A stretch of 64,000 nucleotides of DNA, taken from a virus (lineage: Duplodnaviria; Caudoviricetes). The position numbers were made by a program, and so were the translations under genes. The stretch lies in IMG/VR virus record IMGVR_UViG_3300033121_001167, positions 1 through 64,000 of that record. One strand, written 5' to 3'. Positions 1 through 27,698 of this stretch are shown here, piece by piece (within the stretch, counting starts at the first letter, position 1; each line of letters opens with the position of its first letter). Below the pieces are notes generated by a model. It ran no database searches, had not been told where the DNA came from, and was given only the letters and a program-made list of their open reading frames with translations.

Positions 1-231
1 ACAGTCGTTCCAACTCACATTTTCTACAGGTAAGTCATCGCCTTTGAAATGGCTGGGGTTGTTACCCATGACCGCAAGCCACTGTGCTTGCGTCACAGGG
101 TATTTTCCGATCTCAAAATCGGGCAGTGTGATTTCGTGCTGACGCTCGTCGTCGTGGCGACCGGCTTCGCTTTCCGGGCTGCCCATCAAAAACGTGCCGC
201 CTTGGACAAAAATCATTTCTATTTCGTTCAT
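1..231 (-). CDS. FGE-sulfatase (C-type lectin fold) protein, copy C, 5' part only (runs off the window)
   Basis: nt 1-313 are identical to 2905-3217; ATG at 231 gives MNEIEMIFVQGGTFLMGS... Confidence 0.9.
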   Translation of the reverse strand, partial: MNEIEMIFVQGGTFLMGSPESEAGRHDDERQHEITLPDFEIGKYPVTQAQWLAVMGNNPSHFKGDDLPVENVSWNDC

Positions 232-259
232 AATATCGTTTGTTTTAAAAATTATAGTA

Positions 260-291
260 CAAAGGTATGTCCAAGTTCAAATGTCTCCAAA
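260..291 (-). promoter_or_regulatory. Bacteroidota-type promoter of FGE copy C
   Basis: Minus strand TTTG-N20-TACCTTTG. Confidence 0.75.
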
Positions 292-534
292 CATTTTGGT
301 ACTGTTAACTTTTCGTTTAGATTTAGGGACAACTGTTGACAAACTAAATGCAGTTAATTCCGCCTCTGTTAACTCTCTCCACCATTTCGCCATATAGCCC
401 ATAAATTTGCCTTCTGTTGCATTAAATCCAGTTTCTCGGGTGTAAGTCCCCAACACTTCCTTCCCTTCACCAGCGATGAAATAAACGGGTTGTTGGTGTT
501 GGGGATGAACAAGATGAAAATTATTGTATTTCAA
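277..534 (-). CDS. Hypothetical protein, 85 aa
   Basis: Co-oriented ORF; its last ~12 codons lie inside the 313-nt repeat. Confidence 0.6.
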   Translation of the reverse strand: MKYNNFHLVHPQHQQPVYFIAGEGKEVLGTYTRETGFNATEGKFMGYMAKWWRELTEAELTAFSLSTVVPKSKRKVNSTKMFGDI

Positions 535-539
535 TTTAG

Positions 540-818
540 TTAACCGATGAATGTTTGCGGATTGATTGCTAATGATAACTCGTCAATATTCGTCCGATAT
601 TCGCAAACAAACTTTACTCCATCGTCGCTGTTCCACACCATGCCTCCCAATTTATCAACGATAAACTGACCATTCACCTCACGAATTGGAATATCACCTT
701 TTATATTTCCAGTTGATTTTGACCACATTCTCCCAAAATCATCAACGTACACAGTTAGTATGGACTTGGATTTTAGTCCATTCCTGATTGCTTTTTTTAT
801 TGCTATGTGATTTACCAT
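540..818 (-). CDS. Hypothetical protein, 92 aa
   Basis: Co-oriented ORF downstream of a consensus promoter. Confidence 0.65.
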   Translation of the reverse strand: MVNHIAIKKAIRNGLKSKSILTVYVDDFGRMWSKSTGNIKGDIPIREVNGQFIVDKLGGMVWNSDDGVKFVCEYRTNIDELSLAINPQTFIG

Positions 819-842
819 TTCAGTAGTTATTAAATGATGTTA

Positions 843-875
843 CAAAGATAAGACACAACTACTGATAGTTGCAAA
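843..875 (-). promoter_or_regulatory. Bacteroidota-type promoter
   Basis: Minus strand TTTG-N21-TATCTTTG. Confidence 0.75.
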
Positions 876-880
876 TCAAT

Positions 881-1561
881 TTACTTCGTTAACAAATCAT
901 TTGCTTTTCTGAGGCGTTTTTGCTCTAAATGATAAGTTTGATATTCCAACACCTTAACTTTAAATTTAAACCACGCAATATCTTCCTTTCGCTGATCCCA
1001 TTTCTCATCGTTGTAGAAAAATCGTGGGCAGTGTTTTCCGGTTACATCGTGGTGACGAACAACATGTGAAATATCTAAACCTTTATTAACTAACTGCCAA
1101 CCAAGTTGTTGTGCAGTCATATCTAAAATTAAAGAATCGTTTCTATCACCGCCTAAACACATTTCAAAACTTAAAGAGTTGTTGTTCTTTATTTTGTTTT
1201 CCAACCACGGTTTTGGAATGAATCCTAACCATTTACGATCTCCAACTGCATACGCAACGTTATGCTCTTCAGTACATTGGACAATTTCTTCATCGTCGAT
1301 ACAATAATGCGTTCCAGCGCGTTCTTTTTTTCGTAAATAATACGCATTTGCCCGAGCATCAGCACCCAGATTTAAGTTGGCGGTATAATGTACGATTAAA
1401 AATTCAATGGGTCTGTTGCGATGTTTCACAGTCCTGTCTAATATTTTTACAAAAGATACAGCAGCAACGAACGGGAGTAACGCGATCAACAAAAATAATT
1501 TGTTGTGAGTTAATATCCATCTTTTTAATTTTAGACTGTAATATTTTAATTTCCGTTTCAT
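881..1561 (-). CDS. N-acetylmuramoyl-L-alanine amidase (Amidase_2) with N-terminal hydrophobic anchor
   Basis: IVHYTAN, THYCID, AYAVGD, SLSFEMC and RHHDVTGKHCP Zn-amidase motifs. Confidence 0.9.
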   Translation of the reverse strand: MKRKLKYYSLKLKRWILTHNKLFLLIALLPFVAAVSFVKILDRTVKHRNRPIEFLIVHYTANLNLGADARANAYYLRKKERAGTHYCIDDEEIVQCTEEHNVAYAVGDRKWLGFIPKPWLENKIKNNNSLSFEMCLGGDRNDSLILDMTAQQLGWQLVNKGLDISHVVRHHDVTGKHCPRFFYNDEKWDQRKEDIAWFKFKVKVLEYQTYHLEQKRLRKANDLLTK

Positions 1562-2157
1562 TTGTATTCTCCTCTTGATTTTAAAATTGGGAGATAAATT
1601 GCTAATTTGGATTGGTTCTGCTCGGTGTATTTTCTAACACTCCTCCACTCATGCGACCACAATGCAAGTTCAAATCTGCGTCTGCGGTTATGTGCTTTCC
1701 GAATATTTTTATTAGGAGACCCACATCCACTTCTTGAACCGCAACATTTTCCGAGAGATGCACCAGAATTAGTAAGACCACAGTTGTAACTGTATAATTG
1801 CAATGCCAGATTTTTATACGGGTCTTGATGCAATCTGCCATACTTTGCGATTTCTCGCAATGTAATCGTCATCGCTTCGTCGAAAGTTACTTTACGGTCT
1901 TTGGTAAATTGTTTAATTTCGTTTCTTCGCACATTTCCCAAGTCATTCCAACCAAACCCGATTGAATATGCTTGTCTTCCATTTTGTCCACGACCATCTG
2001 GATACCACCATGAACGGTAACCTTCATTGGCTTTAATTTCCCAAATTAACATTTGGTATGGAGTGTACTCAAATTTGTGTGTATTTGCTGACATCAATAT
2101 GATAAAGAATAACATACACGATGCAAATACAAGTGCAGAGTCAAGTAATTTTTTCAT
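1558..2157 (-). CDS. Phage lysozyme (GH24-like) with N-terminal signal/anchor
   Basis: IKANEGY...YPDG...YSIGFG (E-D-S/T triad spacing); LQLYSYNCG. Confidence 0.75.
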   Translation of the reverse strand: MKKLLDSALVFASCMLFFIILMSANTHKFEYTPYQMLIWEIKANEGYRSWWYPDGRGQNGRQAYSIGFGWNDLGNVRRNEIKQFTKDRKVTFDEAMTITLREIAKYGRLHQDPYKNLALQLYSYNCGLTNSGASLGKCCGSRSGCGSPNKNIRKAHNRRRRFELALWSHEWRSVRKYTEQNQSKLAIYLPILKSRGEYK

Positions 2158-2343
2158 TTTTTTGGAGTCCTTGGATTAAATATAAAAATATCAATTCCCC
2201 TAAATATGAATAGAAACAAAATAGTCAATAATATCATATAAATGTTAAGAAAATCTTAAAATTGGGAACTTTCAATTAAGTATCCGACCACAAATGTATT
2301 TATATGCAGATAACTAAAACGTTAACAAAACGTTAACATATAT

Positions 2344-2381
2344 AAAAAAGCACTTATCCTATAACATTGGGATAAGTGCTT
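2344..2381 (-). terminator. Rho-independent terminator downstream of FGE copy A
   Basis: 12-bp perfect stem AAGCACTTATCC/GGATAAGTGCTT, 10-nt loop, U-tract on the minus strand. Confidence 0.85.
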
Positions 2382-2386
2382 ATATT

Positions 2387-2478
2387 CATCATACTTCGCT
2401 ATCGGTCGCCCACGACCTCTTTGCTTGTATGACTCATTTTATTTTTTTGCTCATAATGCTACGCAGATAACCCCTGAC
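2387..2478 (-). promoter_or_regulatory. Conserved non-coding element after the FGE stop (putative DGR IMH plus hairpin), copy A
   Basis: Matches 26866-26959 apart from 2 substitutions and a 2-nt homopolymer indel; contains the GGTCG-N4-CGACC hairpin at 2404-2417. Confidence 0.75.
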
Positions 2479-3135
2479 TCACCGGGAGGCGAGGCGGAAG
2501 CCGACATGGATGAGGCGGAGCGTCGGCTCGCCGTAGTTGCGATTAGCAGAGCGGCAGCTCCGAGCATCGTTGTACCAGCTGCCGCCGCGAAGCACGCGGT
2601 ACCCGCCCGAATCCGGTCCAGTCGGGTTGACCTGCGTCTCGGCGGGGTAGTCGCCATACCAATCGTTGCACCATTGCCACACGTTGCCGCTCATGTCGTG
2701 GAGTCCCAGTTCGTTGGGCTTTTTTGTGCCAACAGGGTGGGTTTGGGCGCAATCGTACCAAGCGACTTCTTCCAAGTCGTTGCTTCCTGCGTACAAGTAG
2801 CCTTTGCTTTGAACGCCGCCACGAGCAGCGAACTCCCACTCCGCTTCCGTCGGCAAACGATATTGCCGGCCCGTCAACGAGTTGAGTTTTTGGATGAACT
2901 CCTGACAGTCGTTCCAACTCACATTTTCTACAGGTAAGTCATCGCCTTTGAAATGGCTGGGGTTGTTACCCATGACCGCAAGCCACTGTGCTTGCGTCAC
3001 AGGGTATTTTCCGATCTCAAAATCGGGCAGTGTGATTTCGTGCTGACGCTCGTCGTCGTGGCGACCGGCTTCGCTTTCCGGGCTGCCCATCAAAAACGTG
3101 CCGCCTTGGACAAAAATCATTTCTATTTCGTTCAT
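2479..3135 (-). CDS. FGE-sulfatase (C-type lectin fold) protein, putative DGR target, copy A
   Basis: YRLPTEAEWEFAARGG, LHDMSGNVWQWC, RVLRGGSW...GFRLA; lacks the catalytic FGE Cys pair. Confidence 0.95.
   Translation of the reverse strand: MNEIEMIFVQGGTFLMGSPESEAGRHDDERQHEITLPDFEIGKYPVTQAQWLAVMGNNPSHFKGDDLPVENVSWNDCQEFIQKLNSLTGRQYRLPTEAEWEFAARGGVQSKGYLYAGSNDLEEVAWYDCAQTHPVGTKKPNELGLHDMSGNVWQWCNDWYGDYPAETQVNPTGPDSGGYRVLRGGSWYNDARSCRSANRNYGEPTLRLIHVGFRLASR
2482..2619 (-). repeat. Putative DGR variable repeat VR-A
   Basis: 26 mismatches against 26963-27100, concentrated at codon positions 1-2 of NNC/NNT codons. Confidence 0.85.
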
Positions 3136-3217
3136 AATATCGTTTGTTTTAAAAATTATAGTACAAAGGTATGTCCAAGTTCAAATGTCTCCAAACATTT
3201 TGGTACTGTTAACTTTT
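2905..3217. repeat. Exact direct repeat, copy 2
   Basis: Identical to 1-313. Confidence 0.97.
3164..3195 (-). promoter_or_regulatory. Bacteroidota-type promoter of FGE copy A
   Basis: Minus strand TTTG-N20-TACCTTTG, 28 nt upstream of the ATG. Confidence 0.75.
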
Positions 3218-3228
3218 GATTAACACTA

Positions 3229-3408
3229 TCAATCATTTAAAACTTGCCTGTTGCCTTTAGTCTGCCATTCCTTCAACTTTTGAAGCGAAATAGTCAATTC
3301 AGACACATTGGTAGATGGTGGATTAGTCAGCCAAAATCGTGTGGGTCGGCGATTTTCTTGGATTGCGGTCAAATCCGTCGTTAGTATCCAAACCTTTATT
3401 GTTTCCAT
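3229..3408 (-). CDS. Small hypothetical protein, 59 aa (METIKVWILTTD...)
   Basis: Translated by hand; below the ORF-track cutoff; fills the gap. Confidence 0.4.
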   Translation of the reverse strand: METIKVWILTTDLTAIQENRRPTRFWLTNPPSTNVSELTISLQKLKEWQTKGNRQVLND

Positions 3409-3568
3409 TTTTTAACTCCGTTATTTTTTGGATGATCCCTGCATGATACAACTGAAGTTCTTCCATATATTGCTGAACTTCCAGATGTTCGTATTGAACT
3501 ACCCCGAGTTCTTTATACGCCTCATCCATTGTAAAATTATTAATATTGTGAAAAGTCAATTTCATCAT
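3323..3568 (-). CDS. Hypothetical protein (start re-called at MMKLTF)
   Basis: 3' part of ORF 3323..3715; the upstream part overlaps the HNH-like gene. Confidence 0.5.
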   Translation of the reverse strand: MMKLTFHNINNFTMDEAYKELGVVQYEHLEVQQYMEELQLYHAGIIQKITELKNGNNKGLDTNDGFDRNPRKSPTHTILAD

Positions 3569-4106
3569 CTTGTTGCGGTTCGTATTGTTCGTAAATTTTA
3601 GTTTGTTCATCTTTGTAGTATCCACCGACCGGACGCAATTTTCCATAATATGAATTATAACAATTGTGGCAAACCAATTCCACGTTTTCGCGCCTAAAAT
3701 CACGTCGGTCTCCATTTTTGAAAACTAATATTGTCGGAGAGGCATTATCAAATAATCTGCGTTCAGAATAGCCACAAATTCCGCATTCATCCAAAAATTC
3801 CCCATCTTCAATGATTCTACGCTTAAATTCAGATTTTGGAAGACTTGGATGTGTACCATTTAAAAGTTCTGTACCACTTAACCGATACCGTTTTTTGGTA
3901 TGTACTGATGCGCCTTTTCTATGGCGATGGAGTTCAAACAGGCTTTTTCCCGTCTCTGCATCAATTACCATCTTGGCGTATTTATTATAAACTGCACACG
4001 AAACATGTAAAAACCGGGCGGCCTGTGAGTTATTGCCACTGTTTCGCATTGCATACCGAATTTCAGATTCGGTCAAATTGTATCGGGGACTTTTCCAAAA
4101 ACTCAT
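3540..4106 (-). CDS. HNH-like zinc-finger protein with N-terminal HTH-like region
   Basis: CGICG...NGDRRDFRRENVELVCHNC; the canonical HNH His appears substituted. Confidence 0.6.
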   Translation of the reverse strand: MSFWKSPRYNLTESEIRYAMRNSGNNSQAARFLHVSCAVYNKYAKMVIDAETGKSLFELHRHRKGASVHTKKRYRLSGTELLNGTHPSLPKSEFKRRIIEDGEFLDECGICGYSERRLFDNASPTILVFKNGDRRDFRRENVELVCHNCYNSYYGKLRPVGGYYKDEQTKIYEQYEPQQDDEIDFSQY

Positions 4107-4378
4107 GCTGTTAATTTATCCTCAATTACATGTAAAAACCAAACACAACCAGAAAGAAACATCGTATTCAAAAACCAGTTTGTGTTGAGATTAAACTCTG
4201 GGAAAATAAGATGAACAAAAAAACTGACCCACACAGATGTGCACAAAAAACAAGTCAGCAATTTATACAAAAATGGAATACGAGTAACAAACATCATACG
4301 GAATGGTTTAAAAAGATAACTTTCGCTGATGATTTGAGTTATTTGATATATTACTACTAAAATGAATACTAAATTCAT
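4103..4378 (-). CDS. DUF1360-like membrane protein
   Basis: LLTCFLCTSVW motif and hydrophobic helices. Confidence 0.6.
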   Translation of the reverse strand: MNLVFILVVIYQITQIISESYLFKPFRMMFVTRIPFLYKLLTCFLCTSVWVSFFVHLIFPEFNLNTNWFLNTMFLSGCVWFLHVIEDKLTA

Positions 4379-4611
4379 GTTACTTCAAATGATAAATTAT
4401 TTTTTACTAATTTCGCAGTAATATTTTGAATTTCTTCTATCGTGCCTTCAAATATTTTACATTTCCCATATGATTTCAATCTTTCCACGATGATATTTGC
4501 TTGAATTGGCAGTAATTCCATTTCCACTTTTAAAAAATGCACAATTGCATCATCGGGCATTTGACCACTTTTTAAAGTAATGTTATATTTTTTGTCTTTA
4601 CAACATGCCAT
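4375..4611 (-). CDS. ClpS-like adaptor protein
   Basis: Size and pattern (...QANIIVERLKSYGKCKIFEG...NLSFEV) resemble the ClpS core. Confidence 0.45.
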   Translation of the reverse strand: MACCKDKKYNITLKSGQMPDDAIVHFLKVEMELLPIQANIIVERLKSYGKCKIFEGTIEEIQNITAKLVKNNLSFEVT

Positions 4612-4727
4612 AGATTTTCCATCACTTCTAATGCAGTGTTACCAAATTGTGCATATATGCGCTGGTCATTGAATCCAACCCATCCAAACCAACATTCATT
4701 ATGTTGTTTGATATTAAATTTTAGCAT
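4572..4727 (-). CDS. Small hypothetical protein, 51 aa (MLKFNIKQHN...)
   Basis: Translated by hand; spans the gap between neighbours. Confidence 0.35.
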   Translation of the reverse strand: MLKFNIKQHNECWFGWVGFNDQRIYAQFGNTALEVMENLWHVVKTKNITLL

Positions 4728-5196
4728 TTCTTTTCCTATGATTTTCCAATTCTTTCATCAATTGTCTCCCAACATCGTATGCGGGCGAATACCATGAAAG
4801 ATCGGGTTCTTTTTTTGGTTTTTCTTCTGGAGGAGGTTCCTCGTCGGCAGCAGGTTCTTCTTCTGAAGGTTCGGGCTTCTCCTCTTCTTCTGGAGGTTTC
4901 CCAGTCATTTGGGCATTTAGTTTATCCAACGTAATTAGCCTACCACCAGCCTTTATTTTAGTGATGTTGCGATAATCAAATTCAGTCGCATTCCCAAACT
5001 CATCATACCCGACACCACGTCTAAAATTTTCCAAGTCGCTCAAATCTGATATAATATACCAGTCATCATTTGCATACACTTTCAGTGATACTTGCTGGTC
5101 TATATATTGTGCCAAAAATTTATTATCAAAATAATACATCGTCCGGGTTTCCTTTGTTTCGGTAATTATCTTTTTTATTTGGTTTTTCAGCCTCAA
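4714..5196 (-). CDS. Hypothetical protein with Glu/Pro-rich linker
   Basis: 160-aa ORF; PPEEEEKPEPSEEE low-complexity stretch. Confidence 0.75.
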   Translation of the reverse strand: MRLKNQIKKIITETKETRTMYYFDNKFLAQYIDQQVSLKVYANDDWYIISDLSDLENFRRGVGYDEFGNATEFDYRNITKIKAGGRLITLDKLNAQMTGKPPEEEEKPEPSEEEPAADEEPPPEEKPKKEPDLSWYSPAYDVGRQLMKELENHRKRNAKI

Positions 5197-5274
5197 TCTT
5201 TTTGGGCTTCTTTTTAATTTTGATTTTGGTTGGTTCCTGTTCCCACCCTTCCAAATCGTCGTGGATATTGATTT

Positions 5275-5598
5275 TCATCTTATTTGATCAACTTTCTCCA
5301 ATTTTTTTAAAATTTGTTCAATCGTATATTTCTGACCATTTTTATTAAATATACGAGTTTTTTCCAAAATATCAGTTCGGTTTTGATTGACTAATTCTTC
5401 AAAAATTACATATCCCGCTCCGCGATTGAATGTAGTGCGATATTTAGACGAATCTGCAATTTTTGAAAATAAAAAATGCCCAAACTGGTTAATTTCATGT
5501 TCAACATCGTGTAAATTATCGCCCGGAAATGTAATATAAATTACAACATTTGGTTTATCCAACCACTCAGGTTTATTTTTGGTGTCCATCCTAAACAT
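5275..5598 (-). CDS. Hypothetical protein, 107 aa
   Basis: Co-oriented ORF. Confidence 0.65.
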   Translation of the reverse strand: MFRMDTKNKPEWLDKPNVVIYITFPGDNLHDVEHEINQFGHFLFSKIADSSKYRTTFNRGAGYVIFEELVNQNRTDILEKTRIFNKNGQKYTIEQILKKLEKVDQIR

Positions 5599-6446
5599 TT
5601 TTTTGCAAGTGAATTATCAGCACATACGAAGTTTGGTTCATTTCGTGCGGGCAAATTTCTACGAGGATACTCCTTCCCCCCAATCATGTCGCATAATTCA
5701 TTGATCGAATATGTAGTTCCAGTTCCGATGTTGAACACACCAGACTCATTATAATTTGCTGCTAACATGTTTGCTTCAATTACATCGTCAATATTTGTAA
5801 AATCTCGGCGTTGTTCACCATTCCCACAAATAGTAAATGGCAGGCCGTCATATTTTTGATTTAAAAATGTTTGAAGGGCTTGCATATATGGTCCTTCACT
5901 GGTCATGTAATTGCCATAGACATTAAAATATCTAAGTATTTTTCCTTTCAACCCAAAATGCTCGCTATAAAATTTAATGTAGTTTTCAGCCACTAATTTT
6001 TGCATTGCATAGGGGCTGGTTGGGTTTGGAGTGTCCGATTCTTTACTTGGAGTATTTTTGTTTCCATATACTGAACTACTACCAGCAAATATGAAATTAT
6101 TTAATCCAGCAGCGCGACATGCTTCCAGCGCAATTGTTGTGCCATGCACATTTGTAAGATCATACAATGGAATATTGTCAAACGATGGTTGAACCCTCGC
6201 TTTTGCGGCTAAATGAAAAAATGCGTCGGCACCATCAATTTGTTTAGCCAACGAAGTTACCTTCATTTTACCAATGTCGTAGTAATAAAATTTGATGTGC
6301 CGAAGTAAACCAGCATCCAATGTTTTTTGATCTGTGGTTGAATAATTATCATACCCAATGACAGTATGACCTTCATCCAGACATCTTTTCATTAGATGCC
6401 TTCCGATAAATCCACAACAACCTGTTATAACTATTTTTTTACTCAT
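5541..6446 (-). CDS. NAD-dependent nucleotide-sugar epimerase/dehydratase (extended SDR)
   Basis: ITGCCGFIG, HLAA, SSSVYG, YAMQK, RYFNVYG, RRDFT. Confidence 0.95.
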   Translation of the reverse strand: MSKKIVITGCCGFIGRHLMKRCLDEGHTVIGYDNYSTTDQKTLDAGLLRHIKFYYYDIGKMKVTSLAKQIDGADAFFHLAAKARVQPSFDNIPLYDLTNVHGTTIALEACRAAGLNNFIFAGSSSVYGNKNTPSKESDTPNPTSPYAMQKLVAENYIKFYSEHFGLKGKILRYFNVYGNYMTSEGPYMQALQTFLNQKYDGLPFTICGNGEQRRDFTNIDDVIEANMLAANYNESGVFNIGTGTTYSINELCDMIGGKEYPRRNLPARNEPNFVCADNSLAKKCLGWTPKINLSGWINQML

Positions 6447-6448
6447 TT

Positions 6449-8506
6449 TTAACCAATGAAAGTGAATGATTTTTCAGTACTACCACCTGTCGTAGCATAA
6501 TTAATTGTTAAAATATTTCCGTTTGATGCAGTTGCAAAATTTGAAATGCCCGATTCTGGATATTTTGCGACTGCATATATTTTATTTACACTCTCGTACC
6601 AGTCAAACATAAAAGTTTTTGTCGTTCCGGAACCAGTCGTCGTTAAATTGTAAATGGAGTCGGTTGGAACATTGCTTCCAGACAAATAAATATCAACTTT
6701 ATAATCTACAGATGTTTGTGCGCAATTTAACAATGACCCAGTAACACGATTTATGTTTTGGTTATAGGTTATATAATCCGATTTCCACGACGGTCGTTGT
6801 ATCGTGGAGGGTAACATTGTGCCTGTAAGCGGGTCAAAATATTTTAATTTAATTTGGTTCAAATATACTGGCTGATTAGTATAATTTATATACCAATTTA
6901 ATAAAAACGGCGTAATTCTCAATGACAACTCCGTAGAAAATCCAATAAAAGAACTGGCACCAAAAAACGATGCAGAAACGCCATTAGACCCGGTGCTGGC
7001 ATAATAAAATATTGGTGAACTTGGAGCAGTAGCTGAATTATACTGATTTATTGAAATAGGCGAGTGCATATAGTACGAAGTCTTAATATCGGACGATATA
7101 CTACGAGTTGGACTGAAATTCTGAGTAGTTAGAAGCGCCACTGGTGCAGTAGAAGACCCTGTGGAAAAGTAAATAATATTATTATGTCCATATACCCCAC
7201 TTGGTAATTTACTACTACTATAATTTAAAAGTAAGTACCCAGAATAACCTATATCCGAGATTGTCGCCTGGCCATATATTCCAAAATTTAAAGTATTATA
7301 TCCTGCACTTAATTGATAATTTGAACTTGTTGCTGCTTGAGAATCAAATCTATGGTTTATAGTTGCTGGGCCACCAATTGCAGTGGATGTTCTAATATTG
7401 CTGTTCCCATACGGATAATTGAATACATTATTGATTACAACCGATTTTGTATAACCCGCTGATACAATTGGCATAGTCAATATTATTGCAGAATGACACA
7501 TGGACGGATTCAATTCTGGTATTAAAAAATTACACACTCCATAAATAGATGTATTATATCCAGTGTTAAGTTTATAAAAATCCTCATTAAATGGTACCAT
7601 CATACTGGACATTATTTGTGTGCTCAAATCAGACCGATAAGTATATGTTATACACACAGTTGGGCTAACATCGGCAAATCGTTGCAAAGATGAACTTGCT
7701 TTCAGGGTATGTGCAGTTGATGTATCTAATGTCCCGCTGACATTCTGAATGTCAAAATAATATGTATCAGAAGCCATAGAATTTTGTAGAACGAATCTAG
7801 CACTCGTTGATCCAGAATCTATCTGCGTAACTAATCTCGTTGTTGTATCTAATGACCTTGCACTATCATACCCAGTATATTGTATCCATATATCTTTGTA
7901 ATCTTTTGTGGATTCTGGTAAAAATGTGTCAAATGCTGGAATATTGGTATATCCGCCAATAGTTTTTCCAAACACTTGCCTACCACCCGCTCCAGCAAAT
8001 AACCATTGCTGATTAAAATTATTAGTATCTAATGGTAGGCGAACAGTTTTTATATTTGTTACTACATCTGTGTCATCAAATTGATATGTTGCTATCAGTT
8101 TGAAACTATGTCCTGTCCACATCCCAGAATTGGCGGCTGGAAATGAAAACCGTGGGGATACAACATGAGATGACCCCGTAAAACGAGTATTAAATAAGTT
8201 TGTAAAATTTTGTTTGTAAAATAATGTTGCATGATCTCCAGTCCCATTTATTGTTGATGTTGCTGCGGGAGCACCGCCCAAATTGCCATCAACCGAACAT
8301 GAAAAAGCGTAATTAGCAACACTCGCAATTGTTGTACCTGTATTAGCATCCCGCAAGTACATCTCTATATCTACACATAAAAAAGTCCGACTTCCAGTTT
8401 CTGGTATAAAAACTTGTTTATTTGATCCTGAGACTACAATAGAACCGCTTTGAGCAGATGTCAACGTTTCCCATCCATACTCAACCGTATTAATTCTGAA
8501 AGCCAT
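6449..8506 (-). CDS. Large Ser/Thr/Asn-rich beta-strand protein, probable virion/tail component
   Basis: 685 aa with a composition typical of tail proteins; adjacent to a tail-fibre-like gene. Confidence 0.55.
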   Translation of the reverse strand: MAFRINTVEYGWETLTSAQSGSIVVSGSNKQVFIPETGSRTFLCVDIEMYLRDANTGTTIASVANYAFSCSVDGNLGGAPAATSTINGTGDHATLFYKQNFTNLFNTRFTGSSHVVSPRFSFPAANSGMWTGHSFKLIATYQFDDTDVVTNIKTVRLPLDTNNFNQQWLFAGAGGRQVFGKTIGGYTNIPAFDTFLPESTKDYKDIWIQYTGYDSARSLDTTTRLVTQIDSGSTSARFVLQNSMASDTYYFDIQNVSGTLDTSTAHTLKASSSLQRFADVSPTVCITYTYRSDLSTQIMSSMMVPFNEDFYKLNTGYNTSIYGVCNFLIPELNPSMCHSAIILTMPIVSAGYTKSVVINNVFNYPYGNSNIRTSTAIGGPATINHRFDSQAATSSNYQLSAGYNTLNFGIYGQATISDIGYSGYLLLNYSSSKLPSGVYGHNNIIYFSTGSSTAPVALLTTQNFSPTRSISSDIKTSYYMHSPISINQYNSATAPSSPIFYYASTGSNGVSASFFGASSFIGFSTELSLRITPFLLNWYINYTNQPVYLNQIKLKYFDPLTGTMLPSTIQRPSWKSDYITYNQNINRVTGSLLNCAQTSVDYKVDIYLSGSNVPTDSIYNLTTTGSGTTKTFMFDWYESVNKIYAVAKYPESGISNFATASNGNILTINYATTGGSTEKSFTFIG

Positions 8507-8507
8507 A

Positions 8508-9446: not shown

Positions 9447-10723
9447 TATTTATTTTTAACTACGATTAGTTCGTTTTCATAATGCTCAAGTCGTTCAATA
9501 TTCAACTTCAAATTTCCCAGCTCCATGTAACCATATTCACCACTATCAGTCAAAATTTGAGATAGTAATGTAATATACTGAAAATCAGTCTGTGTGAACG
9601 TGTTTCCATCAATTTCAACGATGATGCCGGGAATTTTAAATGTTCCAGTAGGATTTATTTTGAGGTTTAAATCGCACCACGTCGTGTTTGGCTGTTCCTT
9701 TGCGATATATTTGCTTATTTCGGGTTGATTCAAATCACACACCAACGAATCACACCAAGGCTCCAGTGTTTGCAATAATTGGTAGTAACAATTTGTTATT
9801 TTGAAGCCGATGTTATATTTGTGCGAGATGATTGGATGTAAATACTCATCATGTTTAACCATTGACCCCCATTTCCTTATAAAATTTCGGGTTGATCGGA
9901 TATTTTGTTCCTCCCACTCGGGACTATTTGTTCCGACTTCTGTAAGATTCGGATTGAATCTGCTGCCTCTACAAGTTAAATGATAGACAAACCCATCCCA
10001 AGTTTGTATAAAGCAGTTTTTTCCAAATTTTAATTTGAATCTATTGAATATGTCGCTGTCTTCCTTTGATTGCGGTGCATACAATGGGTCGTGTCCACCG
10101 ATTTCTTTAAATTCATCTACCCAGAATGCCCACGGCGCAAATACTCCGTAAGTTATTTTTTCATGTATATAATTTTCTCGGTATATTTTAACCAAATCTA
10201 AAAGCGAATCTTCGTCAAAATTTTCAGGTTCTGTGCCAAAATCATCTACTAATTTTTCTGGACCGGATGGATGTAGTGGCGGTTCTATTCGGGTGAGAGA
10301 GACAATCCGGTTTTTATTTTTTATTGGCTTTGAAGCGAATGAAGAAACCGTCATACCAGATGGATATTGCTCACGTTTAAATTTCCAGTCATACATCAAT
10401 CTGTCAATTGCATCCAACGCATTTGGGCAAAGGTACATATCACTATGGAATATCATTGCAACTTCAGTTTCCACAATTTCATTTATAATTCGGTCATACA
10501 TAATGGTATGACCCAACCGCTTACCAGTTGTATTTTCTATTGATTTTACAAATGGATCAATTTTCTTTATTTCTTCAATCCACTCCCGTGTCCCGTCCTC
10601 ACAATGATCAATTCCATAACAAATCCAAACTTCATGGTCGCCTTGATTTTTACGGATAGAATCATAGGACCATTTCAAGTATTTAAGATTGTTCCGGGTG
10701 GATACTACTAAACTAATTTTCAT
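9446..10723 (-). CDS. Glycosyltransferase family 2
   Basis: ISLVVSTRNN, DHCEDGT, FHSDMY, EDSDIF. Confidence 0.9.
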   Translation of the reverse strand: MKISLVVSTRNNLKYLKWSYDSIRKNQGDHEVWICYGIDHCEDGTREWIEEIKKIDPFVKSIENTTGKRLGHTIMYDRIINEIVETEVAMIFHSDMYLCPNALDAIDRLMYDWKFKREQYPSGMTVSSFASKPIKNKNRIVSLTRIEPPLHPSGPEKLVDDFGTEPENFDEDSLLDLVKIYRENYIHEKITYGVFAPWAFWVDEFKEIGGHDPLYAPQSKEDSDIFNRFKLKFGKNCFIQTWDGFVYHLTCRGSRFNPNLTEVGTNSPEWEEQNIRSTRNFIRKWGSMVKHDEYLHPIISHKYNIGFKITNCYYQLLQTLEPWCDSLVCDLNQPEISKYIAKEQPNTTWCDLNLKINPTGTFKIPGIIVEIDGNTFTQTDFQYITLLSQILTDSGEYGYMELGNLKLNIERLEHYENELIVVKNK

Positions 10724-15027: not shown

Positions 15028-15359
15028 AACTGAATCGTTTTAAATGTATCAAGTTTTTCATTAATTATTCGTGGCAGAGCAAGTGCCAAATCCTCATATT
15101 CATCCGCATCTTCGTCGTAAAGTCGTGGATCATTTTCAGTATTAAATAACTCCAATTCATTCATTTTAAATACTGCCCAAAATTCGCAAAATTCAAAGGT
15201 GATTGTAATAGATGGCGCATCTCCATCAATATTTACCTGATTGTAAATTTGCTCATTTACATCTGTGACGATGTCGAGTATTTCGTCTAATGTTTTATCA
15301 AAAAATGTCATAAGTGTTTTATTTTTTACAATTATACAAAAACTTTTTAAATAATCCAA
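15024..15359 (-). CDS. Hypothetical protein, 111 aa
   Basis: Co-oriented ORF. Confidence 0.6.
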   Translation of the reverse strand: MDYLKSFCIIVKNKTLMTFFDKTLDEILDIVTDVNEQIYNQVNIDGDAPSITITFEFCEFWAVFKMNELELFNTENDPRLYDEDADEYEDLALALPRIINEKLDTFKTIQL

Positions 15360-15549: not shown

Positions 15550-15595
15550 CTATAATAAATAATTTTGTTTTTACAATAATATTAAAAGTTTTTGA

Positions 15596-15826
15596 TTATT
15601 GAGGAACAATCTTCCAATAGGATGGTTCACCTTCACGAAAATCGCCTTCAACAAGTTCAAGTTTCCATCCATACGATTCCAACCATTCAACCAATTTAGG
15701 ACTTTTTGAAATCTCATCATTTTTAAAAGTGAATCTACCATACGCAACCGCACATTCAATGTTAACAATCGATTTCTTTAAAAGATTGTCCGAACTTGGA
15801 TAATTTGTTTCTTCTGGTCTTAGCAT
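15596..15826 (-). CDS. Hypothetical protein, 76 aa
   Basis: Co-oriented ORF. Confidence 0.5.
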   Translation of the reverse strand: MLRPEETNYPSSDNLLKKSIVNIECAVAYGRFTFKNDEISKSPKLVEWLESYGWKLELVEGDFREGEPSYWKIVPQ

Positions 15827-18242: not shown

Positions 18243-18248
18243 AATCTG

Positions 18249-19895: not shown

Positions 19896-19984
19896 TTGTT
19901 ATTCTCCCAAAAATTATAAGTGTGTATATTAAAAGTAGTGATAAAACACTACAAAACAAAATTACGTCTAAAACTGCTGACCAT

Positions 19985-21489: not shown

Positions 21490-21594
21490 TTAAAATGTTT
21501 GTTTTAGTGTTGTACGGCGAAATTTATAGCATATAATTAAAAATGCTATACCACCAAGAATCATAACAACGTCTTCGGTAATAATGTAGTGCAT
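21490..21594 (-). CDS. Small membrane peptide, 34 aa (MHYIITEDV...)
   Basis: Translated by hand; TAAATG coupling. Confidence 0.4.
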   Translation of the reverse strand: MHYIITEDVVMILGGIAFLIICYKFRRTTLKQTF

Positions 21595-21622
21595 ATTTTT
21601 TCCTTTTATTTAGTTAAAAATT

Positions 21623-22705: not shown

Positions 22706-22749
22706 ATATCAATTCCACTCTAAATAGTATTCCAGAAAAATTTATACAT

Positions 22750-23145
22750 TTATTTTCTTAACGTTAAAGGCACTCTGGCCTGTATTGAAAAAATAGGTTG
22801 ATCCCGATAATAATCTACATTTATCAATAGACATTCTTTCCAATGTATTTCAAGATTGAGAGGAGTTATGTACCCTTTACCAACAGTATAATACATTGGA
22901 GGAAGTGCTACAAATACACTGAAATCCTTCACTTTAAATGCCCTAATCGCAAATTTCAAATCAATTCGGTGGTAATTGTCCAAATTACTATTTACAGTCA
23001 ATCTTGCAAACGCAATTTTTACATTAGACTCTGCATGGGCATTAAACATCCACGGGTCTTTGTCGGAAACAGTAAACCCGCCAAACACTTTATCTTGTGC
23101 AAGTGCAAGATTTGAAAGCAATAGAAAAAATGCGATTAGTCTCAT
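22750..23145 (-). CDS. Exported beta-strand-rich protein, possibly outer-membrane
   Basis: Signal peptide MRLIAFFLLLSNLALAQ; alternating hydrophobic strands. Confidence 0.5.
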   Translation of the reverse strand: MRLIAFFLLLSNLALAQDKVFGGFTVSDKDPWMFNAHAESNVKIAFARLTVNSNLDNYHRIDLKFAIRAFKVKDFSVFVALPPMYYTVGKGYITPLNLEIHWKECLLINVDYYRDQPIFSIQARVPLTLRK

Positions 23146-23919
23146 TTATACATATTTCGTTTTAATTAAATTCCAAACATCTTGCATTACCTGAACTCGC
23201 TGCTCAATAGGAAATCCAGTGAAATGCCATATTTTCCCATATTTTAGAAAATGCGGCCAAGTTCGTTCATCTTCCATAACAAACTGGTTCGGAAAAAGTT
23301 GCCAGTTGTTTATGAACATATTTTTTTTATGGATTGAAAGCAAATTCCATTCCGGAGTTAATAACTCAACCTCAACATTTAGTTTTTGAATTACAAAATT
23401 CAACAAGGTTTGCTCCTTACCTCCACCTACGATTGAGTCTATTTCAGATTGTCTGTTTAAATACAACCAACACAGTTCTTCAAATACTTTTAGGTTAGCC
23501 TTCCCGAAAAACAAAACTCCGGCGTTTAGATATTTAAACACATCCAATTTGACATTTGGGAAGAAATGCTGTCGCTGTCCAATGGATGAATACAGCCAAT
23601 TCAAGTCACACAAATCGTTTACACCGTACATTTTGTCAGGTTCAATTTGGTCAAAAATGTTTGGAGCATCCCAGCGGATCATCGTATCACTGTCAACAAT
23701 TCCGATTTTATCATAACCAACACCTTTTTGATAAATTAATTCCTTGGTCCATATAGGGTAAGTAAACCGCTTATCGTGCTCAGTACAAACAACCAAGTCA
23801 ATGTTGTGGTTTTTACAATAGTATTCCCACGTTTTAAGCGAATATACTGCATAATCCGAACATTGGATTTGTTTGGATGGGTCGTTTATGTTGACGATAT
23901 ATACGAGGGTTTTACTCAT
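23146..23919 (-). CDS. Glycosyltransferase, GT8-like (paralog of 20224..21000)
   Basis: IVDSDT, YLNAGV, EQTLLN, EWNL, IWHF. Confidence 0.85.
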   Translation of the reverse strand: MSKTLVYIVNINDPSKQIQCSDYAVYSLKTWEYYCKNHNIDLVVCTEHDKRFTYPIWTKELIYQKGVGYDKIGIVDSDTMIRWDAPNIFDQIEPDKMYGVNDLCDLNWLYSSIGQRQHFFPNVKLDVFKYLNAGVLFFGKANLKVFEELCWLYLNRQSEIDSIVGGGKEQTLLNFVIQKLNVEVELLTPEWNLLSIHKKNMFINNWQLFPNQFVMEDERTWPHFLKYGKIWHFTGFPIEQRVQVMQDVWNLIKTKYV

Positions 23920-24348
23920 TCAGTGCAATTTATGAAATTCGTTAATTGAATCAGATACATTTTCAACTTCAGTCACTACAAATGAATCCCATGTTGATTG
24001 TTTTATTCGCAATCTATACCACTGTTCCAATTGCATTTTATTGCTTAAAAATAATTGGTTTGGCTTCTTAATTAACTTCTTCAACAATCTTGGCTGAAAA
24101 TATTGGCAGGATTGGATTGAAGTTATTTCTATCTCCACACCATATTTGCTATATGGCGACTCGTGACAATATGCGACGAGTTCCAAATGATTTTGTTTTA
24201 ACTGTTCGGTATCTTCGTAGTGCATCAGTAAAAATGATATATTGTTATACTTAACATGAGTACAATGAACCAAAACAGTATCCACAAATGCGCGTTTAGT
24301 TCTTCTCGTTCCATAGAATGTTATACGTTTCATCAAACGTTTCCACAA
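23920..24348 (-). CDS. Hypothetical protein
   Basis: Co-oriented ORF. Confidence 0.55.
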   Translation of the reverse strand: MWKRLMKRITFYGTRRTKRAFVDTVLVHCTHVKYNNISFLLMHYEDTEQLKQNHLELVAYCHESPYSKYGVEIEITSIQSCQYFQPRLLKKLIKKPNQLFLSNKMQLEQWYRLRIKQSTWDSFVVTEVENVSDSINEFHKLH

Positions 24349-24562
24349 ATGAACCTAAGCAAACCAAACCAAGAAACACTACAAGTGTTTTACCAAGGAA
24401 ATGCCATTTAAACGGGTCTGGTTCGTTGCTTATAAAATAGCAAATACCATACGTCAGCAAAAATATCACAAAGTACAATACCAATGTTATTAAAAATGCA
24501 ATTAATGATTTCATTTTACAAAATTTTAATTTAGGTAATTTATGTGGGTTTCCAATAACCAA
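24296..24562 (-). CDS. Small membrane protein
   Basis: Two hydrophobic helices. Confidence 0.55.
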   Translation of the reverse strand: MVIGNPHKLPKLKFCKMKSLIAFLITLVLYFVIFLLTYGICYFISNEPDPFKWHFLGKTLVVFLGLVCLGSFVETFDETYNILWNEKN

Positions 24563-24791
24563 TTACACTCTTAACATTGTTATGATAAGCAGTGATAGTT
24601 CCTGTTTCAAATTTAATCGGGCTAAACACAAATCTGGTATAATTTGCATCTATTAATTCCTTCATAAACTCCACAGTTTCAAACTCGTCATCGCTCAGTT
24701 CATACCAATTTTGAGGTTTTGGTGATGGGCACCCATTCGTGTCAAGCAGTATCCCAACTGTATCAGATCGGCATATAATCAGTCTTTTCAT
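24540..24791 (-). CDS. Hypothetical protein, 83 aa
   Basis: Co-oriented ORF. Confidence 0.55.
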   Translation of the reverse strand: MKRLIICRSDTVGILLDTNGCPSPKPQNWYELSDDEFETVEFMKELIDANYTRFVFSPIKFETGTITAYHNNVKSVIGYWKPT

Positions 24792-25741
24792 CTTACAAAA
24801 TTTGGATGGTTGTGAATATGTTTTGGGTGGGGAACATCAATAAATTTGGCAAACTGTCCTTCGTCTTGTCTCGATGGCCTAATCATGACTTTTTTTGAGG
24901 TTGGTAATGGGCGGAGAACAAATTCAGTTCCTTCGAGCGAATCTGCCCATTTTTTGTGAACAAAATTATCTGAATTGTATCGTATTTTTTCCAATCCAGT
25001 TTCAAAGTCCTTCCAATACTGAGGATCGCTCCGATAAATGAGTTCATACCGAAGTTCCTTCCATTTGCCATTGACAAACCACGGATAATGTCGTACCCAA
25101 AACTTATCTGTGTATTTGAGTAATGGATAATTTTGCGACATAAATCCATCCATTGCCCGTCTGTAATTTTGCATATTATCAAAACAGTAACAAAAACGAC
25201 GGAATTTTGGGCTGACTTCGTTGATTGCTTCGCAATAATACTGCGTTTCAAGAAAGTCTCTCCAAACGCATTTTAGTCCTTCGCCGGGCATCAATTTTGA
25301 GATTTCCTCGCTAATAACATCTTTGTCTAATTCGTAAAGGAACGCATCCGGTTCCAATGGAAAAATGATTGTTCCTTCACTGACAAACGATTCTAAACCG
25401 TGTGTTATAGCATTCAAAAAGCATATATTTGCATCATAATTCTTATAGTCAATAATTTTACATTCAATATGTGGCAATTTGCCATCACCATCAAATTGGT
25501 TCCGTGTATATTCGGAAACAATATCTAACGTCATTTCATAATCAAATCCAGCATTGGTGTCTTCATAACACCATTTTTTGCGAAATTGGCTGTCAATCTC
25601 TTTCTTATTTTCAACGCCTCCCGGAAAAATACCAGTGTTTATAATTATTACATCGGGTTCAATTACATCTATCATGTTCTGAATCCAATACTTCAAGAAA
25701 TGGCTGCTGGCAAATTCTGGAATTATGACAATTTTTTTCAT
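24788..25741 (-). CDS. Glycosyltransferase-like protein (GT-A)
   Basis: IVIIPEF start and IFPLEPDAF (DxD-like); cluster context. Confidence 0.5.
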   Translation of the reverse strand: MKKIVIIPEFASSHFLKYWIQNMIDVIEPDVIIINTGIFPGGVENKKEIDSQFRKKWCYEDTNAGFDYEMTLDIVSEYTRNQFDGDGKLPHIECKIIDYKNYDANICFLNAITHGLESFVSEGTIIFPLEPDAFLYELDKDVISEEISKLMPGEGLKCVWRDFLETQYYCEAINEVSPKFRRFCYCFDNMQNYRRAMDGFMSQNYPLLKYTDKFWVRHYPWFVNGKWKELRYELIYRSDPQYWKDFETGLEKIRYNSDNFVHKKWADSLEGTEFVLRPLPTSKKVMIRPSRQDEGQFAKFIDVPHPKHIHNHPNFVR

Positions 25742-25971
25742 TGTATCTGCGTTATTTTATAGCAATTGTAATTCACATACGGATCCTCAAACTCATCAAC
25801 CTCCGCCTCATCCACTGCAACTAACAACTCCATAGAAATCAAGTTTTGAGCAATATATTTAGCCACAGTACATTTAAGCGCATCAAGTGTGATTTGTTGC
25901 TCTTCGTACACAACATCAAGATCAATATCAAGTTGTATTTTCATAAATGTATAACTCCAATCCCTCCCCAC
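25738..25971 (-). CDS. Hypothetical protein
   Basis: Co-oriented ORF. Confidence 0.45.
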   Translation of the reverse strand: MGRDWSYTFMKIQLDIDLDVVYEEQQITLDALKCTVAKYIAQNLISMELLVAVDEAEVDEFEDPYVNYNCYKITQIQ

Positions 25972-26591
25972 ATTTGATCTAAGTCGTTGGTGTCTGGATA
26001 GACTATTTCAGAGGTTTTATACTTCCCGCTTGCTTTCAATTCCTGCCAAAACTCACCGACATAAACATTTCGGTCATGGTGTCGTTTGGAGATTTGGATG
26101 TCGTGGAATGCAACAATGCCACCTTTCCGTACAAATGGGGAATAATCTATCCAGTCTAACTTAACTCCGTTGTATGAATGATCCCCGTCAATGAAGAGAA
26201 AATCAATAAATGGCTTAGTGGTTTTAGAACCAGATAGTGATAATAATTCGGCTTGAGTTGCGGTGCTGTGACTATTTCCACGAATGAACTTACAATTCTT
26301 AAATTTAGTTTTGAACCATTCATCCCGATCATCCATTTCCTTCTCGCTGATCCCTCCGTGAATTCCGCCATCACTTACATCAATTGAAATGTTCAGTCCA
26401 TCCCAATTAATAGAATTCCACAAATAGAAAGTTCCGCCATACTTTGTCCCGATTTCCAGAATGTTGTATGGTTGAGTTGTATCGCGGCCGTCAAAGTGAC
26501 GAGAGACTAAATCATACAATTCAGTTATTTCCTGACGGATTTGGGGCATATAAAGTGAATATGCTGTGTTTATATTATGTTCGTTATTCAT
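25941..26591 (-). CDS. Class I SAM methyltransferase (Methyltransf_24)
   Basis: ILEIGTKYGGT, LFIDGDHSY, GGIVAFHD. Confidence 0.92.
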   Translation of the reverse strand: MNNEHNINTAYSLYMPQIRQEITELYDLVSRHFDGRDTTQPYNILEIGTKYGGTFYLWNSINWDGLNISIDVSDGGIHGGISEKEMDDRDEWFKTKFKNCKFIRGNSHSTATQAELLSLSGSKTTKPFIDFLFIDGDHSYNGVKLDWIDYSPFVRKGGIVAFHDIQISKRHHDRNVYVGEFWQELKASGKYKTSEIVYPDTNDLDQMWGGIGVIHL

Positions 26592-26835
26592 TAGTTTCTT
26601 TAAATATTTTCATCAGTACATCCGAGCCTCCACACACTTCAAAATTAGTTTGAGCGTCCCGAAAATCGTACTGAGCCAAACGTGTTTGGGTTTTAACGTG
26701 TGCAAGAATATCATCTACATTATCAAGCGCAGATACAGTTGACAATAAAGTCAGCATCGTCGTCTCCACTTTATCGGCGACATTAAGACGAATTAACATA
26801 TCAACTTGTTCGTCGGTAAACTGATTGTAGCACAT
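26584..26835 (-). CDS. Hypothetical protein, 83 aa
   Basis: Co-oriented ORF. Confidence 0.55.
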   Translation of the reverse strand: MCYNQFTDEQVDMLIRLNVADKVETTMLTLLSTVSALDNVDDILAHVKTQTRLAQYDFRDAQTNFEVCGGSDVLMKIFKETNE

Positions 26836-26865
26836 AATTAAATTTTTGTTTTAACATTCGTCATC

Positions 26866-26959
26866 CATCATACTTCGCTGTCGGTCGCCCACGACCTCTT
26901 TGCTTGTATGACTCATTTCATTTTTTTTTGCTCATAATGCTACGCAGATAACCCCTGAC
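26866..26959 (-). promoter_or_regulatory. Conserved non-coding element after the FGE stop (putative DGR IMH plus hairpin), copy B
   Basis: Near-identical to 2387-2478; hairpin at 26883-26896. Confidence 0.75.
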
Positions 26960-27634
26960 TCACTGGAGGGCGAGGCGGAAGCCAACATAGTAGGCACGGA
27001 TCGTCGGCACGAAGTTGCCGAGATCAGCGGAGCGGCAGCGCCGAGCATCGATGCTCCAGCTGCCGCCGCGAAGCACGCGGAGCCCGCCCGAATCCGGTCC
27101 TGTTGGGTTGATCTGCGGCTGCGGCTCGGATGGGTAGTCTCCAGACCAATCTTGGCACCATTCCCACACGTTGCCGCTCATGTCGTGAATACCGAGTTCG
27201 TTGGGCTTTTTTGTGCCTACCGAGTGGGTGCGTAAGTTGGAGTTTTTATACCGCCAAGCGACTTCGTCCAAGTCGTCGCTGCCAGCGTATTTATATCCGT
27301 TGGAATAAATGCCTCCACGAGCAGCGTATTCCCATTCCGCTTCCGTTGGCAAGCGGTACGCTTTGCCCGTTAGCATGTTGAGTTTTTGGATGAACTCCTG
27401 ACAGTCGGTCCAACTGACATTTTCTACGGGCAAGTCATCACCCTTGAAATGGCTGGGATTGTCACCCATGACCGCAGCCCACTGTGCTTGCGTCACTGGG
27501 CATTTTCCGATGTAGAAGTCGGAAAGTGTGACTTCGTGCTGGGTTTCGTCGTCGTAGCGCCCGACTTCGTTCTCTGGGCTTCCCATCATAAACGTACCGC
27601 CTTGGACAAAAATCATTTCTGGCTCAAAATTCAT
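26960..27634 (-). CDS. FGE-sulfatase (C-type lectin fold) protein, putative DGR target, copy B (start re-called at MNFEPEMIF)
   Basis: Paralog of 2479..3135; the longer ORF start at 27697 runs through the promoter. Confidence 0.95.
   Translation of the reverse strand: MNFEPEMIFVQGGTFMMGSPENEVGRYDDETQHEVTLSDFYIGKCPVTQAQWAAVMGDNPSHFKGDDLPVENVSWTDCQEFIQKLNMLTGKAYRLPTEAEWEYAARGGIYSNGYKYAGSDDLDEVAWRYKNSNLRTHSVGTKKPNELGIHDMSGNVWEWCQDWSGDYPSEPQPQINPTGPDSGGLRVLRGGSWSIDARRCRSADLGNFVPTIRAYYVGFRLALQ
26963..27100 (-). repeat. Putative DGR variable repeat VR-B
   Basis: Aligns without gaps to 2482-2619. Confidence 0.85.
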
Positions 27635-27665
27635 AATAGCATTGCTTGTTTTAAAAATTATAGTA

Positions 27666-27698
27666 CAAAGGTATGGTAAATTTTCAGACAATTCCAAA
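27666..27698 (-). promoter_or_regulatory. Bacteroidota-type promoter of FGE copy B
   Basis: Minus strand TTTG-N21-TACCTTTG, followed by the same TACTATAATTTTTAAAACAA leader as copies A and C. Confidence 0.75.

Follow-up and report, generated by a model that had tools for sequence, protein, structure and literature searches.

In this study, we show that stand-alone FGE-sulfatase/C-type-lectin (FGS/CLec) genes dispersed in the genome of a large uncultured phage end in variable regions (VRs) that match the template repeat (TR) of a diversity-generating retroelement (DGR) on a bacterial contig, with the mismatches concentrated at the adenines of the template. The DNA analyzed here (the window) is a stretch of 64,000 nucleotides (nt), positions 1 to 64,000 of the IMG/VR record IMGVR_UViG_3300033121_001167, assigned to the Caudoviricetes. 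Comparison of the sequences gives firm grounds for regarding the phage VRs as adenine-mutagenised copies of the bacterial template, and equally firm grounds for placing the targets in the phage and the template, the reverse transcriptase (RT) and the HRDC gene in a Bacteroidota chromosome. DGRs are usually treated as self-contained, with enzyme, template and targets on one replicon; here the system appears to be split between virus and cell. The reading of the phage cassettes as remote targets of a bacterial chromosomal HRDC-type DGR is supported as to the location of the template, and we lean, with fair rather than high confidence, towards the view that cDNA homed into the phage DNA during infection.

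Phage cassettes and their bacterial template

A profile search with PF03781 (FGE-sulfatase) gave three matches in the window, all on the minus strand, as are all of its long open reading frames (ORFs). Judged by the full-length matches (E=1e-53 to 1e-54), the phage targets carry the C-type-lectin/FGE-sulfatase fold, and the proteins are apparently cytoplasmic. An earlier reading of the window made from its letters alone (the sequence-only reading) had counted at least three targets. This holds for genes (A, B and a partial C), but only two VRs lie within the window; cassette C is truncated because the record start falls within the gene, and its variable half is the end of a partner record, G001 (126682-127036). 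The same reading had described the cassettes as G+C-rich in an A+T-rich genome, and the counts bear it out: 95 of the 138 nt at positions 2482-2619 are G or C (68.8%), and the G+C content is 56.9% for cassette A, 55.3% for cassette B and 35.9% for the 79,249-bp record. Cassettes A and B are ~85% identical across their entire length, while their ~95-nt tails, at 95%, are more alike than the coding region, and cassette C with its upstream block is 100% identical to 2905-3214. The cassettes stand in neighborhoods of glycosyltransferase, lysis and replication genes, scattered and with no RT adjoining. Their features are as follows.

2479..3135, minus strand: cassette A, a stand-alone 218-residue (aa) FGS/CLec protein without N-terminal extension (PF03781 E=1.5e-54, residues 5-216)
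2482..2608, minus strand: VR-A, a 127-nt block homologous to the bacterial template (L125 9988-10114)
2384..2478, minus strand: non-coding tail of A, 95% identical to the tail of B; its first 46 nt after the VR are common to the bacterial target
2449-2460, minus strand: motif in the A tail, the reverse complement of the TR 3' flank
2387-2435, minus strand: candidate imperfect stem-loop of the A tail, with an inner hairpin at 2404-2417
3136..3214, minus strand: conserved upstream block of cassette A
26960..27634, minus strand: cassette B, a stand-alone 224-aa FGS/CLec protein (ATG at 27632-27634; PF03781 E=5.1e-53)
26963..27089, minus strand: VR-B, a 127-nt block homologous to the bacterial template
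26863..26959, minus strand: non-coding tail of B, with the flank-complement motif at 26930-26941, the stem-loop at 26866-26914 and its inner hairpin at 26883-26896
27635..27700, minus strand: conserved upstream block of cassette B
1..231, minus strand: cassette C, the first 77 codons of an FGS/CLec gene (PF03781 E=2.8e-15), 100% identical to 2905-3135
232..310, minus strand: upstream block of C, putatively promoter-like, identical to 3136-3214 and with a core common to 27635-27700

The nearest non-phage homologues of the cassette protein among 5.8 billion proteins searched are 60-66% identical and belong to Bacteroidota. Scans with exact DNA patterns of the inferred template and with the VR consensus found no cognate match in IMG/VR, the JGI metagenome contigs or the GTDB genomes scanned; the template pattern does fit the locus described below (L125), a contig outside those collections. 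A looser VR pattern led to one related bacterial DGR (L033), of an RT family carried by metagenome-assembled genomes of Saprospiraceae, Lewinellaceae and Phaeodactylibacter. Since the template had been called as a 46-aa ORF in one related Bacteroidota-type contig, the template that the phage VRs imply was translated into 41 aa and compared with short proteins. The top match, P0257, is 100% identical over 38 residues and sits on JGI 3300009870 Ga0131092_10009748 (L125), a contig of 17,151 bp with 54.8% G+C. Thus, comparing a translated template inferred from orphan VRs with short predicted ORFs found what the DNA pattern scans had missed. The genes of L125 are, in order, pyruvate kinase, EAD11, a Peptidase_C14-TSP3-FGS target, HRDC, RVT_1, the template and SprB/Por_Secre_tail, of which the following matter here.

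6318-8375: target, a 685-aa Peptidase_C14 (caspase)-TSP3-FGS protein, beside the EAD11 gene
HRDC gene: HRDC E=2.7e-14
RT gene: RVT_1 E=3.5e-12, with a YMDD motif
9988-10114: template (TR), 127 nt with 34 adenines, directly 3' of the RT
SprB/Por_Secre_tail gene: 1268 aa, a type-IX-secretion cargo that marks Bacteroidota

With an HRDC gene, an RVT_1 gene, an A-rich TR 3' of the RT and an adjacent target that has a VR, L125 is by its gene content an HRDC-type DGR, and the contig, which also carries the pyruvate kinase and SprB/Por_Secre_tail genes, is Bacteroidota-type chromosomal DNA. The guess of Bacteroidota made in the sequence-only reading, which had proposed a search for a matching template there, fits this contig. 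Its suggestion that host cassettes in the phage are served by a host DGR stands in so far as there is a cognate HRDC-RT-TR on a Bacteroidota-type contig, with A-specific mismatches to every phage VR and the same tail after the VR; host-driven rewriting in the phage DNA itself we consider reasonably probable. Five other candidates were set aside as cognate DGRs: L015 is an unrelated avd-type element, and L033, L123, L124 and L126, although members of the same HRDC family, have TRs with differences at non-A positions. The Lewinellaceae homologue P0017 is not cognate and has no RT within 6 kb. A cyanophage lead, in the form of a DNA polymerase 39% identical to that of Microcystis phage Mel-JY01 and FGS genes of the Ma-LMM01 type, did not identify the host.

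Mismatches between VR and TR, scored over 127 nt as lying at a TR adenine or at another base, were distributed as follows.

VR-A: 20 mismatches, 18 at TR adenines and 2 at other bases; P=9.5e-11
VR-B: 26 mismatches, 22 at TR adenines and 4 at other bases; P=2e-12
VR-C: 18 mismatches, 16 at TR adenines and 2 at other bases
VR-D: 27 mismatches, 25 at TR adenines and 2 at other bases
L125's own adjacent VR: 21 at TR adenines and 4 at other bases

Across the copies, the chance probability of such a concentration at adenines ranges from 3e-9 to 8e-17, and the non-A positions of the phage VRs match the bacterial TR at 97-98%. Both non-A mismatches of VR-A are also present in the bacterium's own VR, and the non-A mismatch sites are largely common to the bacterial and phage VRs (61, 106 and 122-123); sites 122-123 plausibly reflect a difference between the homing signals of the target and the template. 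The phage and bacterial targets become highly identical precisely at the point where the TR has its 5' end. In the gene bodies that precede the VR, identity is 48% in aa and ~69-74% in nt, and inside the VR no identical run exceeds 12 nt. Beyond the VR, phage cassettes A, B and D agree with the bacterial target at 45 of the next 46 positions, and this tail is untemplated because the TR flank differs there. Part of the tail, 11 nt long in the phage and 13 nt long in the bacterium, is the reverse complement of the RNA that directly follows the template on its 3' side. Farther downstream, both phage and bacterial tails have a candidate stem-loop, with differing stem sequences; it is conserved, but its fold (z=-1.0) gives no thermodynamic support, and there is only one wobble change among the phage copies. 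Five VR states are found on phage-specific gene bodies, some of which are 100% identical to one another, and no excess sharing of A sites was seen between the bacterial VR and any single phage VR, all pairs sharing about half of their doubly mutated sites.

The adenine signature is also seen among the phage copies taken by themselves. Seven were aligned over a 117-nt VR: A, B, an allele of B, D and C from the partner record, and C1 and C2 from a sister strain. There are 40 variable columns, in which every adenine of every copy sits, while the 77 invariant columns comprise no A, 36 C, 27 G and 14 T (P ~2e-11 at the A frequency of the gene body). The pairwise differences number 19-31 and fall at codon positions 1 and 2. 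A phage cassette serving as the template itself was rejected, as no copy has A in more than 19 of the 40 variable columns.

The phage genome and its missing retroelement machinery

The window's record is an IMG/VR fragment of 79,249 bp, called linear and rated 41% complete, and G001 (IMGVR_UViG_3300033121_000954; 127,036 bp, called linear, 69% complete) was reached via a cassette relative. Apart from the cassettes, all that the two share is an overlap of 245 nt, end to start, in which 2 positions mismatch, and joining them at this overlap gives a continuous 1975-aa ORF (record 78020-79249 plus G001 1-4940). The break between the records lies within tandem repeats of this ORF, whose repeated hydrophobic segments are tape-measure-like. 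The remaining ends of both records stop inside cassette C, and this second junction is bridged by the sister-strain contig L036 (ERZ724505 NODE_290), in which window 4-753 is followed by 74 nt and these by the final 355 nt of G001; other contigs run from C1 directly into a second cassette, C2, and then into the G001 flank. We draw the phage map, then, as a ~206-kb circle with cassettes A, B, C and D (79.2 + 127.0 kb), which exceeds the 184-193 kb implied by the completeness estimates. The phage has 36% G+C and T4-like replication genes, and its stand-alone FGS/C-type-lectin targets number four, or five in the sister strain, each having an upstream block of its own, a 127-nt VR and the untemplated tail behind it. 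Metagenomes containing the phage are JGI 3300033121, 3300045332 and 3300045333, the sewage-type ENA assemblies ERZ724505, ERZ724528 and ERZ724538, and SRR32380191 and SRR23702518.

The RVT_1 profile had no match at E<=1 anywhere in the 79,249-bp record, window included, and a sensitive nucleotide search (blastn-short) with the VRs matched only the VRs themselves and no template-like copy in that record, in agreement with the claim of the sequence-only reading that neither RT nor template is present in 64 kb. No RVT_1, template or HRDC gene was found in G001, and searches of the ~206-kb phage map with three DGR RTs, the cognate one included (phmmer --max and tblastn), returned nothing. As a positive control, the RVT_1 search recovered the RT of a control DGR virus record. 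The PF05635 profile missed the Avd of that control record, so that the Avd search is uninformative; the absence of Avd that the sequence-only reading had listed carries little meaning, given also that the accessory gene of this type of DGR is HRDC. The possibility it had raised of a phage RT and TR outside the window is now unlikely, as the ~206-kb circle, closed through two verified junctions, holds no RT, HRDC gene or template, and no RT-TR locus adjoins copy C, where by its own account such a locus would have refuted dependence on the host. In the whole map, then, no RT, TR or accessory gene was found on the replicon of the targets, and there is no receptor-binding tail protein beside an avd-TR-brt locus, the arrangement of a phage-encoded DGR of the type of Bordetella phage BPP-1.

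Probable homing into phage DNA and competing explanations

It seems that the phage copies could be written in the following way. When the phage replicates in a cell that bears the element, the template RNA would be reverse-transcribed with errors at adenines, and the cDNA would home into the phage copies just as into the caspase-FGS gene of the cell itself. The guides would probably be the IMH-like 3' end of the VR (IMH, initiation of mutagenic homing) and probably also those 11-13 nt of the tail whose complement directly follows the template on its 3' side in the RNA. Such writing in phage DNA may be rare or episodic. We favor homing into phage DNA because the block of identity is bounded by the 5' end of the template, because the untemplated tail is kept while the gene body diverges freely, and because five independent VR states sit on phage-specific bodies.

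Local change counts in its favor as well. When the window is compared with JGI 3300045333, in near-identical genomes, there are 3 differences in 6.1 kb and all of them fall in VR-B (27017, 27051 and 27052; ATC to TAC and GGC to GGT), with a clustering probability of ~9e-6; however, the three lie apart from each other and one of them affects a non-A site, which argues that they did not come from one homing event. Several other observations weigh against homing. VR-C does not differ among three assemblies that are ~5% apart in its flanks, VR-A in another sample differs by its last codon alone, and the A and B proteins of the sister strain are letter-identical on 11 and 14 contigs, respectively; no wholesale rewriting of a VR was seen between the samples compared. 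The cassettes are moreover mosaics of one another with breakpoints within the VR, and with such recombination identical bodies carrying different VRs need not mean that rewriting followed duplication. The bacterial contig comes from a different sample than the phage, and its G+C content of 55% stands against 36% for the phage, although T4 and E. coli differ by about as much. In addition, a short lytic cycle would leave little time for a rare homing event. Since the alleles are static and the cassettes mosaic, diversification in the phage lineage appears to be rare, episodic or past.

In a rival explanation, the VR ends would have been diversified in bacterial target genes and brought into the phage by recombination or gene transfer during infection, with no cDNA homing, the copies now being slowly evolving ordinary genes. 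The nearly static alleles across samples and the frequent recombination among cassettes, with breakpoints within the VR, fit such an import, as do the many phage loci in which a stand-alone FGS gene ends in a VR-like stretch and an RT is lacking (none within 10 kb at 78 of 80 loci) and the one RT-less FGS gene that is identical in nine samples. Nevertheless, we rate import as unlikely: identity sets in exactly at the 5' end of the TR, when a recombination junction would be expected anywhere; the gene upstream of the VR is too diverged (~69-74% in nt) for homologous exchange, and no identical run within the VR is longer than 12 nt; import would have had to happen, precisely and separately, five times or more; and none of the phage VRs lies nearer to the bacterial VR than the phage VRs lie to one another. 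An excess of shared A-site states between the bacterial VR and one phage VR, which would have favored import, is not seen either. It could also be proposed that the lineage acquired an RT-TR of the same family along with the target and either lost it, leaving as fossils the VRs that it had written in cis, or keeps it at a locus that the assemblies lack. Some room for this proposal is left by the records, which are called linear fragments (41% and 69% complete) and meet in repeats at both junctions, but 206 kb is more than the 184-193 kb expected from completeness, each junction is bridged (the second in the sister strain and by contigs of other samples), and at no threshold did a trace of an RT, HRDC gene or TR turn up. 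Moreover, strains without RT-TR differ from each other by ~5%, yet their non-A positions match the bacterial TR at 97-98%. We consider a lost or unassembled phage DGR very unlikely. Homing of cDNA from the bacterial template into phage DNA is the explanation we consider most probable.

Comparison of strains gave further observations. Against JGI contig L041, the window shows 0 differences outside VR-B over 23358-29499 and then 144 over 29500-33019; on these counts, the step at 29499/29500 is a sharp recombination boundary between two strains. In the sister strain, whose flanks are 94-96% identical (L036 10001-10775, L037 and L038), the protein of the cassette at the A locus has no more than 75% identity and ends in 'LALAPQSVG'; the VR departs from the L125 template at non-A bases, and in the tail the motif GGCATTCCTGTGAGC stands in place of AGCATTATGAGC. 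This cassette looks as if it were tuned to a second template and, because both the non-A bases of the VR and the tail motif differ, it hints that cassettes may be swapped to match the DGRs of different hosts. The sister strain also has tandem cassettes C1 and C2 (L036 13061-13862; L042 1-930; L035; L043) where G001 has one, and the G001 copy of C has the VR of C1 together with the 3' end and flank of C2, from either a deletion between the repeats or an assembly collapse.

Relation to known retroelements and to other phages

In Bordetella phage BPP-1 (mtd-avd-TR-brt), as here, transfer from template to VR is A-specific and is directed to the 3' end of a gene with a C-type-lectin fold, and cis elements are needed at the end of the VR, which for the phage studied here are predicted from sequence. 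In plasmid trans-complementation of BPP-1, the recipient is a phage that lacks the parts in question. Avd, TR and brt supplied from a host plasmid then act in trans (PMC5758913). Unlike BPP-1, the phage described here is naturally without an RT, TR or accessory gene and its template lies in a bacterial chromosome; the accessory protein is HRDC and not Avd, and the targets are four to five stand-alone, apparently cytoplasmic proteins and not a tail fiber. In cellular DGRs of Treponema denticola and cyanobacteria, one RT-TR serves several FGS/CLec targets at dispersed sites, all with the VR and 3' signals in common (PMC5758913, PMC7517822). Such remote-target DGRs resemble L125 in their HRDC-type architecture with the TR 3' of the RT, but their targets are in the same genome, whereas here the targets are in a virus and the machinery is in a cell. 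It has been argued that phage-associated DGRs should not have remote targets, because the parts would not be co-inherited (PMC5758913), and our literature search found no paper on natural phage targets served by a cellular DGR. VRs that are orphan or frozen have been noted in crAss-like and other phages and are similar to the present ones in being VR-like gene ends without RT-TR in the phage; the present case goes beyond them in that a multi-copy family lies on a nearly closed 206-kb map, the exact template was recovered, and the untemplated tail and the flank complementarity are common to the bacterial target.

DGR-diversified FGS sensors fused to caspase, TIR or EAD effectors in multicellular bacteria have been proposed to be hypervariable intracellular sensors of invaders (Kaur et al. 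2021, PMC8195603). The L125 target is like them, a Peptidase_C14-FGS protein beside an EAD11 gene, whereas the phage copies consist of the FGS domain alone with no effector. Because the bacterial target beside the template resembles an immune sensor, the case bears on virus-host arms races, and if the cDNA does home into phage DNA, the virus exploits the hypermutation system of its host to evolve binders of its own. A role of the phage copies in immunity or counter-immunity is a conjecture. In one form of it, which we think quite unlikely, the phage FGS proteins would be effector-less mimics of the host's caspase-FGS invader sensor, still wired to host hypermutation and acting in counter-defence as decoy binders or as a cDNA sink. 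As decoys, they could mask a phage ligand or poison receptor assemblies; as a sink, targets present in high copy during replication could soak up mutagenic cDNA and blunt the diversification of host receptors. In any event, a large phage keeps four to five targets with matching recognition signals for a template that is not its own. The match offers a sequence-based link from an uncultured jumbo phage to a candidate host, and it constitutes a natural experiment on the cis requirements of DGRs, as the gene body diverges while the VR, the 46-nt tail and the flank-complementary motif are kept.

RT-less FGS genes are found in other phages as well. In a different phage represented in two unrelated samples (L039 3282-19426 and L040 1-16145), there are 17 mismatches in 16,145 nt, and all 17 fall in a stretch of ~80 nt in the VR of an FGS gene that encodes a stand-alone protein of 230 aa and has no RT within 10 kb; four VR variants are seen among seven proteins that are otherwise identical (P0014 and P0131-P0136). 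The confinement of these differences to the VR indicates that wholesale VR rewriting does occur at RT-distal phage loci. Among the stand-alone FGS loci of IMG/VR (L045-L122), 78 of 80 have no DGR-type RT within 10 kb, and the VR-like end of one such gene, of 212 aa, is the same in nine samples (L063-L071). The complete genomes of the cultured Microcystis phages Ma-LMM01 and MaMV-CH01 (L021-L028) have 2-4 FGS genes with VR-like ends and no RVT_1, and their FGS orthologues diverge most in the VR-like end.

Some minor features of the window may be added. The 2.2 kb between cassettes C and A (311-2466) hold a 199-aa ORF, an Amidase_2 lysin and small ORFs, and this stretch is a separate contig in four other assemblies, each broken at the cassettes, indicating that short-read assembly fails at these repeats. 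Each tail has two copies of the palindrome TGAGTCA (2430-2436 and 2475-2481; 26909-26915 and 26956-26962), one overlapping the stop codon and the other lying at the foot of the stem-loop, and the tail of the bacterial target has TGAGTCA at the stop and ACGAGTCA farther on. An AT-rich motif, TTTTTACAAT..ATA, is repeated upstream of genes at 15308-15353, 15553-15598, 44344-44383 and 46178-46221 and probably represents a family of phage promoters.

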